A stretch of DNA of 64,000 nucleotides from a virus (Duplodnaviria > Caudoviricetes): positions 28,517-92,516 of the IMG/VR virus record IMGVR_UViG_3300033068_001265. One strand, 5' to 3'. The translations under genes and the position numbers were made by a program. Positions 47,310-64,000 of this stretch are shown here, piece after piece; within the stretch, counting starts at the first letter, position 1, and each line of letters starts with the position of its first letter. The notes below the pieces were generated by a model. That model did no database searches. It saw only the letters and a program-made list of their open reading frames with translations, and was not told where the DNA came from.

Positions 47310-48062
47310 TCAAGCCCTTGAGAGCAAGGTGAAGTAGCGGTAGGGCATGGGGACGGGGCGTACGCTGCCATCAGCCCCCCGATTCGGGGTCGGTACCAGT
47401 CCAGAAATAACCAACCAATCAGGCTCCCCCGGAGCTAAGGGTCGGTATGAAATTCCATTTGTCCCAAACCAAGTATCAGGATTCACTAAATTAGGTGCGT
47501 CTGGCACATGAATGATCTGCATCGGATCCTCCAAAGGACGAGATGTTGGGGGCTTCAAAGGTGATGGCGTACCGGGAGGTACCGGGATGGGTCTATTCTG
47601 AACATGGGAGGCGGCTAACATTGCTACAAGTTGACGTACATGTGCTGGTGTTGATGTAACTTCAAAGTGCATGGGGTCTGGGTTGGACCAGCCCCCACCC
47701 CAAGACCAACCCCATTGACCAAACAAGTAAACAAGCCAATCTGGTGGCTTAAGTCGACGTTGGCCTTGGGGATATCTACTGGCATCAATGTCCACTGCCA
47801 GCCCCCAGCTGTGGTTACTGGGTGAGCGGGTCCCGGCGATAGGGCGGTTTGCATAACCCCAATCATCATCCGGATCTTTTGGTCCATAATCGAACAAGTA
47901 CCCTCGGCGCTCTGCTTCTGCAACGATATAAGCCAAGAGTGGAGCAACCTCATGGTGAACCTGCCATTTGGCCCCACTCAATGGGGCCTTAACCCAGATC
48001 ATATCATCTAGTCTATTTGTAGGCCATCCAGCCCCCCAGCCCCTTGACTGAGCACTAGCCAT
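47310..48062 (-). CDS. endolysin, M15-family peptidase
   Basis: SNHSWGLAVDID...DPMHFE. Confidence 0.9.
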   Translation of the reverse strand: MASAQSRGWGAGWPTNRLDDMIWVKAPLSGAKWQVHHEVAPLLAYIVAEAERRGYLFDYGPKDPDDDWGYANRPIAGTRSPSNHSWGLAVDIDASRYPQGQRRLKPPDWLVYLFGQWGWSWGGGWSNPDPMHFEVTSTPAHVRQLVAMLAASHVQNRPIPVPPGTPSPLKPPTSRPLEDPMQIIHVPDAPNLVNPDTWFGTNGISYRPLAPGEPDWLVISGLVPTPNRGADGSVRPVPMPYRYFTLLSRA

Positions 48063-48070
48063 TATGACTC

Positions 48071-48880
48071 CTAGGCTTTGCCATCCCGAATCTTATTCAA
48101 TGAAACAATCAGCCACCACTTAGTGGTGTTACCAATAGCCCCCGGAAAATCTGTTATTCCGGCACCCAAAGCATTCATCCACTTTTGGAACTTCGCTACA
48201 GCATCGGCGGTAGCCTGACCATAGTGACCATCCTCTTTGAGCTTCGTTCCTGAAACCAAATTAAGTGTTCTCTGGACTACCACCACATGCAACGACTTGG
48301 TGTTTAGTCCCATCGGCACCGGAACATCACCCATGCTACCACTCAGCTGAGCACCCAGCATCCGACGTAACCCTGCCCAATCCACGGGTTGATTAGGTTG
48401 ACGAACAGCACTGGACCCTGAACTATTGATGGATACGTAACCCAAAATCTTTGAGCGGCGGTACTGTTCAGCTACACCACCACCAGTGCGTGAACCTCTA
48501 ATATTAGTATTTCCCTCAAGGGTATGAATTCTTCCATCTGGAAGAACCCCCTGCACAATACCAACGTGATCAGCCCTACGACCACCAAACGAAAACAAAA
48601 CTAGATCACCACGTTTAGGGTTACTGGTTTTCCAAATCCCATGACGCTTGGCGTAATCCACTACGGCTGGACAATAAGAAAAGCCCTTGGTGGTAGAAAT
48701 CTTTAGAGGCGAACCAGCATGATAGAATACCCAAGAGACGAAGATCGCGCACCAAGGCGCACCATTTAAACCATAGAATTGACCATACTTGGTTCTGTTA
48801 GATCCACGCGGTGATTCGCTGTAGCCAAGCTGTGACCTACCTACAGCGATCACCTGTTCCACGTTAGCTGTTAAAGCCAT
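48071..48880 (-). CDS. endolysin, CHAP domain plus peptidoglycan-binding domain
   Basis: WCAIFVSW...HVGIV...EGN; DGHYGQATADAVAKFQ. Confidence 0.92.
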   Translation of the reverse strand: MALTANVEQVIAVGRSQLGYSESPRGSNRTKYGQFYGLNGAPWCAIFVSWVFYHAGSPLKISTTKGFSYCPAVVDYAKRHGIWKTSNPKRGDLVLFSFGGRRADHVGIVQGVLPDGRIHTLEGNTNIRGSRTGGGVAEQYRRSKILGYVSINSSGSSAVRQPNQPVDWAGLRRMLGAQLSGSMGDVPVPMGLNTKSLHVVVVQRTLNLVSGTKLKEDGHYGQATADAVAKFQKWMNALGAGITDFPGAIGNTTKWWLIVSLNKIRDGKA

Positions 48881-49023
48881 CAGGCCACCTCTTCTGGTTC
48901 ACCGCCATCGTCGTTCCACTCTGGGGGTGCTGGAGGCTGATCATCGCCATCCTCGGGTGAAAGTGATTTGTCTGTGTCCACCCAGATGATTGGTTTATCT
49001 GGTGCGGCCTCGCCGTCACCCCT
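48880..49023 (-). other. 47-codon acidic open frame in phase with the holin, after its UGA
   Basis: RGDGEAAPDKPIIWVDTDKSLSPEDGDDQPPAPPEWNDDGGEPEEVA*, ending in a TGATG overlap with the lysin ATG. Confidence 0.6.
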
Positions 49024-49344
49024 TCAATCGTTGGGCTTACCAACCCCGAAGTTAGGGAGAAGCTTGTCATTGGCCTCTACGGGCTTGTACAAGCCAAGGT
49101 AAGCGGCGATCGTCGCAACAATACTAATAGCCCAATAAGTCAGTGTCTCCGTTGAGAGCACCGCTGAGCCGGTATCAGTCACATTTGCATTGATGAGGGT
49201 CACAACACCCGTGGTAACGATCATTACCACATTCTTGATAGCAGTGGAAGCGTTTGCCTTAACCACAACACCAACCACAATGGGAATAAACAGTGATGTG
49301 ATTAAAGTAACCAAAAGCGGGTTAAGCTCCATAATTTGCTCCAT
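49024..49344 (-). CDS. holin (three predicted TM segments)
   Basis: three hydrophobic segments and AAYLGLYKP; directly upstream of the lysins. Confidence 0.85.
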   Translation of the reverse strand: MEQIMELNPLLVTLITSLFIPIVVGVVVKANASTAIKNVVMIVTTGVVTLINANVTDTGSAVLSTETLTYWAISIVATIAAYLGLYKPVEANDKLLPNFGVGKPND

Positions 49345-49633
49345 TTCGATAAAATTCTGATTTCACGTATGTGGCCCTAAGGGCCTTGTACTTACCATCC
49401 CATGGTATTTCATCCGGATCGTACATGATCTGGAATTTCCGACCAGATTTAGATATCATACCCATATCGATGAACTCAGAAAACACTTCAGACATCGCTT
49501 GATAGGACATGCCTACAATATTAGACATCTCTCTTTGAGTAACGGTCAAAAATCCGTTCCGGTCGGCATAATCATAGATTGTTCGATATATCGACTCTCT
49601 GTCTATGAGAGGTCGATATCCACCACGAGGCAT
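49322..49633 (-). CDS. winged-HTH DNA-binding protein
   Basis: VTQREMSNIVGMSYQAMSEVFSEFIDMGMI. Confidence 0.75.
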   Translation of the reverse strand: MPRGGYRPLIDRESIYRTIYDYADRNGFLTVTQREMSNIVGMSYQAMSEVFSEFIDMGMISKSGRKFQIMYDPDEIPWDGKYKALRATYVKSEFYRNGANYGA

Positions 49634-52600
49634 CTATCCTCCTATCTTCAACTCACACACATCTGTTGTGCAGAAGATCTCTCCTTCTGCTTCATTTGCT
49701 ACAGAGTACAATCTCTCCAAATCTAAGGGCTTGATTTTACTCATCAATTCAAGCCCCTCTTTCTCCCCCAACGGCTCATATGGAGCCTGCTTGTAAGTGG
49801 TACCCTCATCACTGATAGGTAGGAAAGAGATGGACTTTAATTGCCCAGCCAAAGATCGTAGCAGTGGTGCAATCTGGTCTTTCTCGCCTTCCTTGAAGGA
49901 AACTGTAACTGACACCATGTTGTCAGCCCAATACCTCTGGGTGAAGGCCGCTAACTGGGCCTTCTCCCAAATAGACACCTCCCGCTCTGAACGCATCTTA
50001 ATTCCCTCTGTCGGGAAGGAAACGACTACAGTAGCACTAGGGTCCATCACATCTGGCTCGCTATGATAGCCAGCCTTTTCCAGAACTTCAAGAAGTGGAT
50101 CAGTTTTGTGGAATCGGATCCGCCTAAGGTAATAGCCAGAGGTTGTTGGCCAGTGAACTCCGGGTGTAGTTCCGGAAATGAGACCCGTCGACCCTGAAGG
50201 TTTTAATGTTGTGAAACGAATTGAGTTTCGTATTCCCAGCCACTTGGAATACTTCTCATCCACAACCGCGAGGTATTTATAACCGTCATCCATCCAGTTA
50301 CGAAGTTCAGCCCAACCCCGAGTCTCGACAAACTCAGCCAACCCCGTCATGGATACACCGATCCGACGGTTTCTGGTGATCACTTCATTGGTCTCGGCCC
50401 AAGGTGAAGGCATTAACACAACAGCCTTAGCATACATGTAGGCGTGCTTTAATGTCTTCTTGAACTCCTCTAAGGAGCCATGTTTTGTAGGGTATGCCTC
50501 AACTAGGCAGCACATCTCATGAGATTCCAACGCTATTTCGGCGCATTGGAAGGTTAGTACACCACTACAAGCCTTACCATCAACTAAAGTTGCGATAGCA
50601 ACAGTATTGTTATCGTCTACTGTAAGATTGTATACATTATGCTCACCCTCAACCTCACACACATCCACAACCCGATGGTTCACCAAGGTTGCGCGATCCT
50701 TCAAATCAGCGAAGTTCTTGGGAATATTAGGGTTCTTGGTTTGTGGTTGGAATCTAAAGGAAACCCCCCGCTCCCGACACTCCCCCTCCCACTCTTTCTT
50801 CATGGGATCACGCCCAAGTTCCACCTGAAGTGACAGATAAATCTCAATTTGCCGAGCAAGGGTGTCAGCTGATCGCTTCTTGTTGGCCTCTCTGAGGCCG
50901 ACAACCTGTGCTGCCGTCACCTCCGCATCAGCGTTACTGCAACTTCCCGAACAAAAGACCCCTGCCCGCTTAGCCCACTTCAAGATCATTTCAGTGCCAC
51001 ACGTCTTGCATTTCTTGACTGCATACAGGCGGTCATCAATCCAAATCGTATCCAGATTCGTGTTGGCTTCTTGGTCAAGGTAGTATTCAAGCCAACTAGC
51101 GTGGCGTGCATCTGATATCTTCCGACGGGTTTCGTCTGTAACACCTTCTCTAATTCTCTGGGTGACCCACTCTTTATACCCTGGATCAGAATGACGCTCC
51201 CTGGTCTTCCTCCCAATCAGTTCTTTCGTTTCCTTAGATTGAGTTCGCCCAAACATGGGGTTCTTCTCTCCACTATTATCAGTGGACCTATGTAAAATGG
51301 CGTGATCACCATGTGTCATTATCTCTAGATTTTCTGGGGCATTATTAAGTGGGTCGTAATCCTTATGGTGGACTACGATTCCACCTTTAATCCACCCCGA
51401 AGCCTTGGCTTCATCGTAAAGATTATCCCATATTTCAGGTTCATTAAATCTAGCAACTAAACGATGCTCAAATGTCTTGGTGTTACTCTTGTGAATATCA
51501 GTGTGGACTTGGACATAATCTTTGCCCCCCTCTTTAATCTTAGCCAGTCGCTTATTAAAGGCAGGTAGGCGATCCCCCTTGGTAAGATCCTTGGCCTCTT
51601 TAACCTCTCCACCTAAAGTGATCATTTTATGATCAGGGGTCACCCTCAAGGAGGTACCATCATTGAGGGTGATTTCAACCAAAGAAGCGCCCTCTCTCGT
51701 CTTGCGAGGGTGACGAGCCATCTTGATTTCTACCTCACCAGATTCAATGTTTAAGGAGTAAACAGCAACATCATCCCCCGACTCCGCAAGTTCAGCGATT
51801 GGCACCGCCACACGTCCATCAGCAACAGCAATGAGTGTATCCCCCGAGAAACAAGGGTTGCACAGTATAGCTGAACCATCCTTATAGTCAGGCGGATCAA
51901 CTAGGCGACCATACTTCTGCATCACGTCAGTCCAGATAACACCCGGCTCACCATTCAACGCAATTCGGTCAATAATTGGATCTAGGGTATCATTCTCACT
52001 TACATCAACAGAGTTATTTGATGTGAAAGACCACCCATCAGGACCTGTACGTTCGGCGTTCTCCGGAAGTTCCCAGTTTTTAATGTCTACAAAATCCTCG
52101 TCTTCCATGCTGCCAAGACTAAGCAACGCTGAACGACGGGCACCACCACTCTGAATGATCTTTCCCAGCTTGTTCATAATATCAACAATGTCACGGGAAG
52201 TGATCTTTTCACCATTACGACCAGCAAATTGCTTCCTGATCGACTCATGATACCAAACCAGGGGGTCTTTCCCACTCGCAGTTCCGCCAAAAGTTTTTAA
52301 TGGAGCACCAGCAGGACGAATCTCGCTGTAATCAAATTCTACAGCTTGGCGATTCTTGAAAAAGTAAGACTCAAGCTGAATACCAACAGATTCAGCCCAA
52401 CCTTCTCTTGTGTCAGGAATGACAAACTTTACAGGCTGATCTTCACTGGGTTCCCAGATAGTTAATTTACCTGCACCCTTGGTGTCGTAGCCCACGCCGA
52501 CGCCCAACATGCACATTTCAGTTAACCTAACAAAGGGTAGGGTTGCTTCATAAGCTGAATGGGTGCTTAGTTTCTCGGTACTAACACAGGCGCAATTGAT

Positions 52601-52990
52601 AAGACTGGCATTAGACCTGTTGTTATGCACATGACTCGTACCCATGGCCCACATTCCCCGGCCAGGTGGTGTCCACTTGAAATGGAACATACGATCAAAG
52701 GCATCCTGTGCAGCCCTTTGAGCCTTAAACTCATTCCATGGTGTTCGCTGGTACTTCGCATGATCCTTAAGGATCGAATACATCCCCTCAATACAGCGAC
52801 GGCACACCTCATACCAGCGTTCCTTGGAGCCATCTTCTTTCTTTCGACTGTATTTTGTCAAGAAAGTTAACTCACTTAGAGAATTCCCTCCACCAATGGG
52901 AAATCCCCAATCGGGTGTTAGTTCGGTGTACTTTTCAACAAAATCATCAGACAAATGGAAAGAAAGAAAATCAGACACAGACACCTCCAA
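49634..52990 (-). CDS. nrdJ: class II (B12-dependent) ribonucleotide reductase with intein
   Basis: PPGRG, RRSA, SNNS, GEPG, NP|C AE, RRIGVS, TTLKPSG, QAPYE, C-terminal CTTDVC. Confidence 0.95.
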   Translation of the reverse strand: MEVSVSDFLSFHLSDDFVEKYTELTPDWGFPIGGGNSLSELTFLTKYSRKKEDGSKERWYEVCRRCIEGMYSILKDHAKYQRTPWNEFKAQRAAQDAFDRMFHFKWTPPGRGMWAMGTSHVHNNRSNASLINCACVSTEKLSTHSAYEATLPFVRLTEMCMLGVGVGYDTKGAGKLTIWEPSEDQPVKFVIPDTREGWAESVGIQLESYFFKNRQAVEFDYSEIRPAGAPLKTFGGTASGKDPLVWYHESIRKQFAGRNGEKITSRDIVDIMNKLGKIIQSGGARRSALLSLGSMEDEDFVDIKNWELPENAERTGPDGWSFTSNNSVDVSENDTLDPIIDRIALNGEPGVIWTDVMQKYGRLVDPPDYKDGSAILCNPCFSGDTLIAVADGRVAVPIAELAESGDDVAVYSLNIESGEVEIKMARHPRKTREGASLVEITLNDGTSLRVTPDHKMITLGGEVKEAKDLTKGDRLPAFNKRLAKIKEGGKDYVQVHTDIHKSNTKTFEHRLVARFNEPEIWDNLYDEAKASGWIKGGIVVHHKDYDPLNNAPENLEIMTHGDHAILHRSTDNSGEKNPMFGRTQSKETKELIGRKTRERHSDPGYKEWVTQRIREGVTDETRRKISDARHASWLEYYLDQEANTNLDTIWIDDRLYAVKKCKTCGTEMILKWAKRAGVFCSGSCSNADAEVTAAQVVGLREANKKRSADTLARQIEIYLSLQVELGRDPMKKEWEGECRERGVSFRFQPQTKNPNIPKNFADLKDRATLVNHRVVDVCEVEGEHNVYNLTVDDNNTVAIATLVDGKACSGVLTFQCAEIALESHEMCCLVEAYPTKHGSLEEFKKTLKHAYMYAKAVVLMPSPWAETNEVITRNRRIGVSMTGLAEFVETRGWAELRNWMDDGYKYLAVVDEKYSKWLGIRNSIRFTTLKPSGSTGLISGTTPGVHWPTTSGYYLRRIRFHKTDPLLEVLEKAGYHSEPDVMDPSATVVVSFPTEGIKMRSEREVSIWEKAQLAAFTQRYWADNMVSVTVSFKEGEKDQIAPLLRSLAGQLKSISFLPISDEGTTYKQAPYEPLGEKEGLELMSKIKPLDLERLYSVANEAEGEIFCTTDVCELKIGG
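50546..51853 (-). mobile_element. intein (436 aa) with HNH/NUMOD3 endonuclease and C-terminal Gln
   Basis: NP|CFSGDTLI...VTPDHKM...HHKDYDPLNN..ENL...VYNLTVDDN...VLTFQ|CAE. Confidence 0.92.
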
Positions 52991-61911: not shown

Positions 61912-62097
61912 CTATCGGGTGACGGCGACGAGGCCGAGATTAGCGCGGGGTCGGCGGGCAGGCAGCAGCAGCACCTTGGAGGCGAACTCGCCGAAGATGT
62001 CGGCAGGGAGGACCGAGTAGGCCGTGAAGGTCTCGCCGTCGACGTCGAAGACGACGGGAGGCTTCTTGGAGGTGAAGGACTTGACCGATTCCGTCAT
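61912..62097 (-). pseudogene. truncated tail-assembly-chaperone-like fragment
   Basis: MTESVKSFTSKKPPVVFDVDGETFTAYSVLPADIFGEF with high-GC codon usage, then abrupt loss of coding character. Confidence 0.45.
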
Positions 62098-62336
62098 GGG
62101 CCGGACCCTAGACCCCGACCCCCGACAAGCAGCATCCCGACGGCGGCCTTGTTGCGCCACCCGGTGAACAGATCCAGTCGGAGCCATGTCCCAGCATCGG
62201 GCTGCGGTGTCCATGTCCCGGTGAACAGATCCAGTCGGAGCCATGTCCCAGCATCGGGCTGCGGTGTCCATGTCCCGGAGAACAGGCTCAGTTCGAGCCA
62301 CGATCCAGCATCGGGAGTGGGGATGTTCTGCGCCAT
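62094..62336 (-). CDS. small repeat protein or fragment
   Basis: (TPQPDAGTWLRLDLFTG) three times; TAAATG coupling. Confidence 0.5.
   Translation of the reverse strand: MAQNIPTPDAGSWLELSLFSGTWTPQPDAGTWLRLDLFTGTWTPQPDAGTWLRLDLFTGWRNKAAVGMLLVGGRGLGSGP
62161..62316. repeat. 57-bp tandem repeat: two perfect copies and one diverged copy
   Basis: unit starts at 62161 and 62218. Confidence 0.92.
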
Positions 62337-63215
62337 TTAGAAGAACGTCTCCCCTGACGGAATCCATATCTTCCCGGACGCTGCGAACACCCGGTAGCGG
62401 TTCGTCCGCGCCGTCGGCAGCGAATCTGTCGCCCAACGGCCGCTCACCGGATCGAGCACGACCAACGCCCCCGTACTGGAGAGGAAGTAGATGTAGCCAT
62501 CAGGTCCCGGCGTCCACGACATCGCCGACATGGGGGCCGGGATCCCACTCGGGGAAGGCGCAGTCGCACCGATCGTCCCGGCCGAGATGTTGTGCCAACA
62601 GCACCCTGATGCGGTCAACCAGTAGACCCGTGACCCGATCGCCTGCCCCACCTGAGTCGTGAGCGGGGCGGCGGGCAGCGTCCAGGTGCCGATCGTGGCG
62701 CCCGAAGCAGCATCTATTGTCGTCAACGTCGACCCGGACACATGGCAGTACACACCCGCCTCGGCGGCGTTGACGGTGTTGACGTTCCACGACACAAAGA
62801 CGTTGGTGGAGATCCGGTACTTGAATCCCCATGAGCCGTTCGTGCCGAACACGTAGTCGCCGGTCGCCGACATGAGATTCGAGAACCACAACCCAGTTGC
62901 GATGATGGCAGTCGATCCACCTACCGGTTCGATGCGTTCGATCCGCGTCGGGTTGTTCGAGTCCGCCGTCCAGGCGTGCCCGTTGGCAGCCGCCATGCCC
63001 ACGGCGGCACTCCAGCCGCCCGAACCGCTCCCCGGGCTCAGTCCGCCGAACGAGCGGGCCGTCCCGTTGTCGGCATCGAAGATGGCGAAGTCCCCCGCGC
63101 CGTAGCTTCCCGAAACAGCGGTCGAACGGACGACGATCCACCGGTCGTCAATCACGCACCCCGAGTACGGGTTGCGGACCGAGAACTCGTCCAGTTCGAG
63201 ACCCGGCCATGTCAT
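62337..63215 (-). CDS. beta-propeller-like putative virion/adhesin protein
   Basis: Gly/Ser/Thr/Trp-rich blades (PGPDGYIYF, ASGKIWI); high GC3. Confidence 0.6.
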   Translation of the reverse strand: MTWPGLELDEFSVRNPYSGCVIDDRWIVVRSTAVSGSYGAGDFAIFDADNGTARSFGGLSPGSGSGGWSAAVGMAAANGHAWTADSNNPTRIERIEPVGGSTAIIATGLWFSNLMSATGDYVFGTNGSWGFKYRISTNVFVSWNVNTVNAAEAGVYCHVSGSTLTTIDAASGATIGTWTLPAAPLTTQVGQAIGSRVYWLTASGCCWHNISAGTIGATAPSPSGIPAPMSAMSWTPGPDGYIYFLSSTGALVVLDPVSGRWATDSLPTARTNRYRVFAASGKIWIPSGETFF

Positions 63216-63227
63216 GGAGTCAGTCTC

Positions 63228-63850
63228 TCATGCGAGTGGATAGCGGATGACCACGATGCCAGACCCGCCCGCTGCACCAGCGACGTTGCCACCAGTGTTG
63301 TTGCCAGACCTCGCTCCAGCCCCGCCGCCGAGCCCGTTCGTTCCGGCGACCGGGCTGCTCTGGCTACCGGCGCCTCCACCGCCAGCACCACCAGTGGAGG
63401 TCTGGGTGTACCAGCCACCACCACCACCACCACCCGCGTAGGTAACAGAAGAACCGGTGATACTGGACGCGGCACCAGCACCGCCGTTCGTGCCCGTCGG
63501 CGAGTCAGCGTTGTTGGCCGCCGCAGCTCCTGCTCCACCTCCACCAGCAGCACCACCGTCGCACCGAACGTCACAGACTGTGTGGCACCCGAAGTGGAGA
63601 TAGACCCGAATGCATATTTGCCGTAGTTGCCGGTGGCGTACATCCACCAGGCGACCCCGGACTGGCAACCGATGGACGTAGATATTTTCAGGCTTCCAGG
63701 ACTTGTGTAGATCAGTGCTCCACCCGTCGACGTGTTCAAGATGGACGTTTGGTAGCCGCCAACGCAGAACACGTACGCGCCACTCTGACCGACTCCAAGC
63801 GGACCTGCCGTCGGCGTGACCTCCAGCACCTCCGTCCCAGGGAAAGCCAC
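63228..63850 (-). pseudogene. chimeric or frameshifted tail-fibre gene: propeller-like N-terminus joined out of frame to a glycine-rich C-terminus
   Basis: frame A MAFPGTEV...SVTFGA switches near 63560 to frame B GGAAGGGG...YAGGGGGG...GGSGIVVIRY. Confidence 0.65.
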
Positions 63851-63851
63851 G

Positions 63852-64000
63852 TCAGAGCTTCTTCCACCCGGCCGGATACGCGGCGGGACTCCACGTGTTC
63901 GCGTCGATCACCGACTCCCACACGGCACCCTCGAACGTCACCCGGTCACCGACGCTGTACGCGTCAGCGGCACCTGTCGGCTGGACGAACGGGTCCGGGG
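63852..64000 (-). CDS. C-terminal CBM5/12-like carbohydrate-binding module, partial
   Basis: manual translation PDPFVQPTGAADAYSVGDRVTFEGAVWESVIDANTWSPAAYPAGWKKL*. Confidence 0.8.
   Translation of the reverse strand, partial: PDPFVQPTGAADAYSVGDRVTFEGAVWESVIDANTWSPAAYPAGWKKL

Follow-up and report, generated by a model that had tools for sequence, protein, structure and literature searches.

The lysis cassette considered here lies within a stretch of 64,000 nucleotides (the window) that forms part of a 92.5-kilobase (kb) IMG/VR virus record, IMGVR_UViG_3300033068_001265. It comprises a holin-like gene, a frame of 47 codons, a CHAP lysin and a second lysin, all of which lie on the minus strand. 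The 47 codons continue the holin frame beyond its UGA stop codon, and the initial annotation of this DNA took them for a candidate readthrough extension, with a leaky UGA giving both a short holin and a long, acidic-tailed form. Comparison with related phages points to a different origin. The 47 codons very probably represent a shortened homolog of an independent gene for a small acidic protein, the ancestral start of which has been deleted.

The putative holin ends at the TGA 49026-49024 and begins at one of two ATGs that are four codons apart, 49344 or 49332, between which gene callers are split; the respective products have 106 and 102 residues. The ATG at 49332 is the more likely start because it is the only one with a Shine-Dalgarno site (-8.3 vs -2.3 kcal/mol) and homologs align from there. 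A dual start of the lambda type is unlikely for this gene. Hydropathy gives three hydrophobic segments (residues 8-24, 35-51 and 64-80), with Lys and Arg in loop 1 and at the C-terminus, and by the positive-inside rule this suggests an N-out/C-in topology with the C-terminus in the cytoplasm. The protein has no match to any family in Pfam or PHROG. It does have the shape of a class I holin, being small, with three helices and a charged C-terminus, and it is encoded beside two lysins; the putative function is assigned from this position and shape.

Directly after the holin stop come 47 in-frame sense codons without a start (49023..48883), here called the tail. The stop codon of this frame, TGA 48882-48880, shares its A with the ATG 48880-48878 of the CHAP lysin in a TGATG overlap. 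The encoded residues include 15 Asp/Glu and 8 Pro, with a net charge of -12. The sequence is T-poor, and 19% of shuffles matched in composition have this frame open; a second forward frame is likewise open across the whole spacer. Openness by itself is weak evidence of coding. The sole canonical in-frame start with any coding length is a GTG at 48981-48979, from which a product of 33 residues is possible. This GTG has no Shine-Dalgarno site (-1.5 kcal/mol, and 87% of random positions do as well). The CHAP lysin itself (48071..48880, 269 residues) carries CHAP and PG_binding_1 domains (Pfam PF05257 at 1.7e-13 and PF01471) and falls into PHROG endolysin families. Its own Shine-Dalgarno site (48885..48891) lies within the last codons of the tail frame, and the duplex of -11.5 kcal/mol places it in the top 2% when compared with random positions. 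The second lysin is a Peptidase_M15_4 protein of 250 residues (47310..48062; Pfam PF13539 at 8.9e-13). In the spacer between holin and CHAP lysin, no promoter and no terminator was found.

The nature of the tail becomes clear when homologs of the CHAP lysin, at 41-70% identity, are followed to their contigs. Small open reading frames (ORFs) that overlap the lysin and contain the core of the tail are present in at least 12 lineages (L038, L039, L041, L042, L043, L045, L122, L123, L126, L127, L207 and L227). In every lineage with enough upstream sequence, the stop of the small ORF overlaps the lysin start, with overlaps of the TGATG, ATGA, GTGA and TAATG types. The core consists of a short hydrophobic stretch, Thr-Asp-Lys, Asp-Gly-x-Gln-Pro and then, mostly, Pro-Pro-x-Trp-x-Asp-Asp. 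The invariant columns of the core in the family alignment (A5) are Lys, Asp-Gly and Gln-Pro, and the tail in the window conforms to them. Family ORFs encode 45-115 residues. All members other than the window copy have an N-terminal segment before the core, of roughly 7-80 residues and about 20-30 in most. Nine lineages that lack this holin upstream have an ATG of their own, most with a GGAGG-like site, and L045 shows no ATG. In L038, which has the closest lysin (70%), a protein of 115 residues combines an N-terminal membrane helix, a Pro-rich linker and, as its C-terminal part, the acidic domain. The L038 cassette (1-585) adjoins an apparent transfer RNA (tRNA) gene on the opposite strand (bases about 20-95) and may represent the edge of a prophage or island. 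The order of holin, small acidic protein and CHAP lysin recurs in the L231 lineage with an unrelated putative holin, a protein of 63 residues with one hydrophobic segment encoded about 180 nucleotides upstream of the small acidic gene and lysin (L231 957-1148).

The window tail is 46-61% identical in amino acids to the tails of L038, L123 and L207, the value depending on the alignment. Between lineages, the proportion of non-synonymous differences (pN) is 0.21-0.26, and 0.23-0.26 where the window tail is compared, vs 0.67-0.87 for synonymous differences (pS, saturated), and the ratio of the corresponding substitution rates (dN/dS) is about 0.1-0.15, a constraint similar to, or a little looser than, that on neighbouring genes. 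Judged by this comparison, the 47 codons are real protein-coding sequence under purifying selection between lineages. Much of what was first noticed at this locus is borne out: the coordinates of the open frame and of its TGATG overlap are correct, the only in-frame start is an internal GTG without a ribosome binding site, and the protein-like look of the frame is matched by homologs in at least 12 lineages and by the dN/dS above.

The family has no Pfam or PHROG match and no tblastn match in 50,697 phage records, and a search of the ESM Atlas returned only unnamed small viral clusters. Against cultured phage records, blastn and tblastn gave neither a DNA match nor a match to the tail, and the best lysin matches among cultured phages are Streptomyces phage endolysins at about 30%. 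A HMMER search of the 47-residue tail against 1.84 billion representatives gave one spurious match to a repeat protein and was uninformative because the query is short and of low complexity. When viral contigs were scanned for the motifs of the tail alignment, no match was confirmed, a scan for the DNA pattern of the junction found only the contig of L123 and three chance matches, and a scan of genome contigs with a lysin profile gave a best match of 40% identity, with no tail ORFs and no host assignment. By these comparisons, this is an unnamed family of small acidic proteins tied to the lysin starts of one clade of CHAP endolysins in uncultured phages. The phages that carry it are probably actinobacterial. 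The small acidic protein, whose position resembles that of Ms6 Gp1 (discussed below), is a candidate for a chaperone or inhibitor of the lysin, or for a membrane adaptor.

Two relatives, L123 (a 79.6-kb viral contig) and the L207 group, have the same synteny as the window, with ribonucleotide reductase, a helix-turn-helix protein, holin, tail and CHAP lysin. Their holins are 54% (L123) and 63% (L207) identical to that of the window, and identity across the three lineages is 54-78%. In both, the holin ends in TGA-A and an in-frame tail frame of 75 codons follows. The conserved stop and conserved downstream frame that would support readthrough are therefore found, as TGA-A and an in-frame tail in the window, L123 and L207. 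This shared arrangement is probably a single ancestral one. However, the tail does not lack a start of its own in these relatives. Five codons (15 nucleotides) after the holin stop, both have a GTG preceded at proper spacing by GAAAGGG; the Shine-Dalgarno duplex of -8.5 kcal/mol (top 10% of random positions) lies 10 nucleotides before this GTG, from which a gene caller calls a gene of 70 residues in L207. The tail has its own start in every relative where one is assignable (ATG, or the GTG with Shine-Dalgarno site in L123 and L207), contrary to the picture of a purely start-less extension, and among lineages with assigned starts only that of the window has no independent start for the tail. 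From just before the stop to 11 nucleotides past the GTG, 29-31 nucleotides are identical between L123 (2266-2298) and L207 (2806-2838), and synonymous sites elsewhere between the two are saturated. Such a block would fit a translation-initiation region around the GTG and, equally, a readthrough context. Polymorphism within the L207 group is too low to be usable.

When the junctions of the window, L123 and L207 are aligned, the loss of the start can be followed base by base. Compared with the other two, the window has a deletion of 3 nucleotides, from GAC GTG GCC to GAG GCC, that takes out exactly the GTG. About 18 further codons are gone between the junction and the core, also in frame. What is still present is a Shine-Dalgarno-like element (49016..49025) that overlaps the holin stop, and its duplex with the 3' tail of 16S ribosomal RNA is stronger (-13.1 kcal/mol) than that of the homologous site in L123 and L207 (-8.5 kcal/mol). 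This element is an orphan, with no ATG, GTG, TTG or near-cognate codon in range because the next 20 nucleotides contain no U.

The same changes account for the hairpin after the stop (49001..49020), which has 8 base pairs, a bulged A, a GAG loop and a free energy of -12.3 kcal/mol. In the alignment, the 3-nucleotide deletion shortens a loop of 6 nucleotides to 3, a second small deletion gives rise to the 3' arm, and one A-to-G change completes the 5' arm. L123 and L207 can form only the inner 4 base pairs, with the GTG start in the 6-nucleotide loop. The initial annotation had considered this hairpin a possible stimulator of readthrough. It is indeed present, beginning 3 nucleotides after the holin stop, but only the window lineage has it, and it does not reach significance (z-score -1.4; 21 of 200 shuffles fold as well). 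Two variants in the population break its closing pair at 49001, without compensation. Structured RNA over the whole spacer is likewise not significant (z-score -1.26). A fold of 66 nucleotides, which pairs the holin stop region with the bases just before GTG 48981, reaches a z-score of -1.85, with 11 of 200 shuffles as good.

Twenty homologs of the holin (28-64% identity, 98-175 residues) were compared. Their C-termini all fall at nearly the same position, no more than a few residues apart, and the additional length of the longer ones lies at the N-terminal and not at the C-terminal end. TGA ends the holin in all 8 lineages inspected at the DNA level, whatever follows, be it an M15 lysin (L002, L215), an HNH gene (L001), or a hairpin and an unrelated gene (L014, L205, L206). 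Among 21 holin-family clusters of 56-181 residues, no fused holin-tail protein was found. Because homologs end there in TGA and none is fused to the acidic tail, the UGA is to be regarded as the natural end of the holin, TGA merely being the usual stop here. Nor, on this comparison, have the 47 codons evolved as a holin extension.

The means for decoding the UGA were also sought. TGA ends 64 of 112 long ORFs (57%), which makes it the commonest stop, and genes are densely packed under genetic code table 11. An alternative genetic code or a general recoding of TGA was rejected on these grounds. No suppressor tRNA was found: the 92.5-kb record holds only a tRNA-Thr and the 79.6-kb record of L123 none, both records being about 67% complete. 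Nothing in 48700-49500 came near threshold for a selenocysteine insertion sequence (SECIS), a riboswitch or any other Rfam family, and the literature searched gave no example of a holin read through at its stop. Ordinary leakage at UGA, of a fraction of a percent, would give a trace of extended holin anyway.

The lineage of the window is abundant, its holin cluster being present on more than 250 contigs, and 25 loci at 97.5% identity or higher were aligned with the window. The holin TGA, the spacing of 143 nucleotides and the frame are invariant in all 25 of these other assemblies, which come from many samples. A nonsense mutation or an error at 49024-49026, which had been put forward as a reason to discount the stop, is contradicted by these 25 assemblies and by the homologs. 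The tail has eight variable sites, of which three are synonymous and five non-synonymous in the tail frame. The flanking genes show 82 synonymous and 7 non-synonymous sites together (24 and 1 in the holin, about 58 and 6 in the lysin), and the tail differs from them with a Fisher p of 5.6e-4. However, the ratio of diversity at codon positions 1 and 2 to that at position 3 is 0.5 in the tail and 0.4 in the adjacent 300 nucleotides of the lysin. The contrast is not relied on here because it vanishes against that stretch and diversity is patchy. Relative to GTG 48981, three of the four variable sites upstream are non-synonymous, and those downstream are two synonymous and two non-synonymous. The GTG codon is GAA or GTA in relatives and invariant in 26 sequences of the lineage.

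Some members of the population have lost other parts of the cassette. In L020 (2545/2542) and L027 (665/662), from samples 3300045330-3300045372, both endolysin genes are lost through a deletion of 1.39 kb (window 47408-48800), after which codon 27 of the CHAP lysin runs, out of frame, into the final codons of the M15 lysin. The holin and the 47-codon spacer are 100% identical in these variants. In L028 and L035, a shorter, unrelated sequence stands in place of about 260 nucleotides of the M15 lysin gene (window 47636-47898), where gene calling gives no M15 gene.

Taken as a whole, and including background-level expression at present, the best explanation we can offer stands at about even confidence. 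In the ancestor of the window, L123 and L207, the small gene would have begun at a GTG 15 nucleotides after the holin TGA, served by a Shine-Dalgarno site that overlapped the holin stop. Because 15 is a multiple of three, the holin and tail ORFs would fall in frame, and selection for an in-frame relation is unneeded. In the lineage of the window, the 3-nucleotide deletion would then have removed the GTG, and further in-frame deletions about 18 N-terminal codons. The Shine-Dalgarno site would thereby have been orphaned, a hairpin newly formed and the frame, still intact, left without a start. The remnant would be made at most at background level, either through a low-level leak at the UGA or because some ribosomes, on finishing the holin, initiate weakly at GTG 48981, while the lysin would presumably be translated from its own Shine-Dalgarno site. 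That the tail is at present a relic expressed at most at this level is a tentative proposition, held at clearly less than even confidence. It is favoured by the orphan Shine-Dalgarno site, the missing N-terminal segment, polymorphisms that are mostly radical, the strong Shine-Dalgarno site of the lysin itself and the decay of other cassette genes in some populations. Expression by some other means altogether is improbable.

Several observations weigh against a relic. Despite three or more indels, no stop has arisen in the frame and its register with the holin is unchanged, and its core and the hydrophobic residues upstream are intact; this intactness appears to exceed what would be expected of a long-dead relic. 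The hydrophobic residues upstream of GTG 48981 are translatable only through readthrough of the UGA. The natural fusion in L038 shows that a membrane-tethered acidic domain does exist. The population data do not prove relaxed selection on the tail, and with the lineage being abundant, loss of the small protein would have to be harmless or compensated.

Several of these points also count in favour of functional readthrough of the UGA. Here, a fraction of the ribosomes would yield a holin with a cytoplasmic acidic tail of 47 residues, a device that may date from the loss of the start or already from the whole clade of L123, L207 and the window. Such a tail could act as an antiholin or a form that docks the lysin, and readthrough would carry ribosomes to the lysin start. 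All indels that separate the window tail from those of L123 and L207 preserve the frame, the 14 codons upstream of GTG 48981, conserved hydrophobics included, have no other route of translation, and TGA-A and the in-frame relation have been kept in three lineages with holins only 54-78% identical. However, the shared register amounts to a single event in the ancestor, for which the odds are 1 in 3, and the tail is an independent gene in relatives with an assignable start, including both that share this holin. Three lineage-specific changes all strengthen the hairpin 3 nucleotides after the stop, although it is neither conserved nor significant and two variants break its closing pair. The 29-nucleotide block that is identical in L123 and L207 despite saturated synonymous sites suits readthrough, yet the same island would also be explained as a site of translation initiation with the GTG at its centre. 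The predicted cytoplasmic C-terminus of the holin would be on the same side as the lysin, which is without a signal, and in the L038 protein a membrane helix and the acidic domain are naturally joined; nevertheless, no fused holin-tail protein occurs among the 21 family clusters of 56-181 residues, and the inspected holin homologs all end in the majority stop TGA even before unrelated genes. Neither a suppressor tRNA nor a SECIS element was found, nor any precedent for holin readthrough in the literature. The prior is low, and we consider functional readthrough unlikely. Of the leaky-UGA extension first proposed, then, the coding frame and the lysin overlap, a conserved trait of the family, have stood, whereas the extension itself has lost ground to a separate gene that would have lost its start, with no fused homolog and no suppressor tRNA.

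A second possibility, to which we give a little more credence though still well below an even chance, is that the 33-codon ORF from GTG 48981 is translated on its own as a new, shorter protein that keeps the core and the coupling to the lysin. Ribosomes could start there by re-initiation after the holin UGA 42 nucleotides upstream, or independently of a Shine-Dalgarno site on an A/U-rich leader. This start codon is specific to the window lineage, is invariant in its 26 sequences and lies exactly where the conserved core begins. The predicted pairing between the bases preceding this GTG and the holin stop region (z-score -1.85) has a geometry typical of translational coupling, but the fold is marginal, with 11 of 200 shuffles as good, and one variant disrupts it. 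An untranslated stretch upstream of the GTG would account for the three non-synonymous changes among its four variable sites, but the downstream sites are evenly divided between synonymous and non-synonymous. In addition to lacking a Shine-Dalgarno site (-1.5 kcal/mol), such a start would give a product without the N-terminal segment of all other members and without the conserved hydrophobic residues that precede Thr-Asp-Lys in alignment A5. Finally, the real holin might have 154 residues, the TGA being due to a nonsense mutation, an assembly error or an alternative code. A frame that runs on without a stop and a tail that looks protein-like would agree with this, but 25 further assemblies from numerous samples have the same TGA, all 20 homologs end near the same position and none has the tail, and TGA ends 57% of long ORFs in a genome that table 11 reads densely. 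Refuted by the assemblies, the holin homologs and the use of TGA, this last explanation is scarcely credible.

In mycobacteriophage Ms6, Gp1 is a chaperone-like protein encoded just upstream of lysA that binds the N-terminus of LysA and improves lysis; it is dispensable for plaques and not present in all relatives of Ms6 (PMC6116114). Like Gp1, the proteins of this family are small and are always encoded against the lysin start, beside a lysin without a signal, and this holds in all family members. Unlike in Ms6, the lysin here is of the CHAP type and not an amidase, and the window copy has lost its start. The likeness to Gp1 is thus one of position and size, in a family without a Pfam or PHROG match or a tblastn match in phage records.

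Closer in form to the readthrough explanation is the A1 protein of phage Q-beta, an essential virion protein made by readthrough of the coat UGA. The base after that UGA is probably an A. Both cases have a UGA and then an in-frame extension in a phage. However, to our knowledge the Q-beta extension has no independent start in any relative, whereas the window extension is an independent gene in relatives and its extended product is only hypothetical. The holin-antiholin pair S105/S107 of lambda, which arises from dual starts and differs at the N-terminus, offers another comparison, since readthrough would likewise give two holin forms that differ in terminal charge and set the timing of lysis, and the window holin also has two ATGs. 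Here the forms would differ at the C-terminus by way of a leaky stop, and only the second ATG has a Shine-Dalgarno site; the parallel is confined to purpose. Borges et al. reportedly described in 2022 that phages recode stop codons with suppressor tRNAs, and that this is enriched in late and lysis genes. An in-frame stop in the region of the lysis genes is common to those phages and the window, but in the latter TGA is the main true stop (64 of 112), tRNA-Thr is the only tRNA found and the case is a single one.

Lysis timing decides the burst size of a phage, and all holin/antiholin pairs that we know of come from dual starts or separate genes. A holin isoform made by readthrough would, if real, be a new regulatory principle. 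Should the unlikely come true and UGA readthrough deliver a lysin-partner domain after the loss of its start, the fusion of membrane helix and acidic domain seen in L038 would have been recreated by recoding. The acidic tail could then, with the same low probability, modulate the formation of holes or keep the lysin at the membrane. Lysis cassettes of double-stranded DNA phages would thereby have their first device based on translational readthrough, a prospect that we again hold to be doubtful. The established part is the family of small acidic proteins, previously unnamed and absent from Pfam and PHROGs. Within this family, the window phage presents a natural start-loss allele, which offers a test of the need for the small protein and of in-frame rescue past a stop. 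This allele, without a start and in frame with the holin, is an attractive candidate for rescue by readthrough.

Some features of the surroundings are worth adding. A gene for a Crp-like helix-turn-helix protein (49633..49322) overlaps the holin ORF by 23 nucleotides (window 49322-49344). This gene for a DNA-binding protein lies directly ahead of the lysis cassette, and the same order is found in L001, L014, L123 and L207. Next to it, the ribonucleotide reductase gene (window 49634-52990) has an intein of the HNH type in the window, and near-identical phages have one of the LAGLIDADG type (L032, L034) or no intein (L036, with a product of 679 residues). Intein content is therefore polymorphic within one lineage, the loci looked at being L032, L034, L036 and L207. 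At the right end of the window (62000-64000), the GC content is about 65% vs 44-53% elsewhere.

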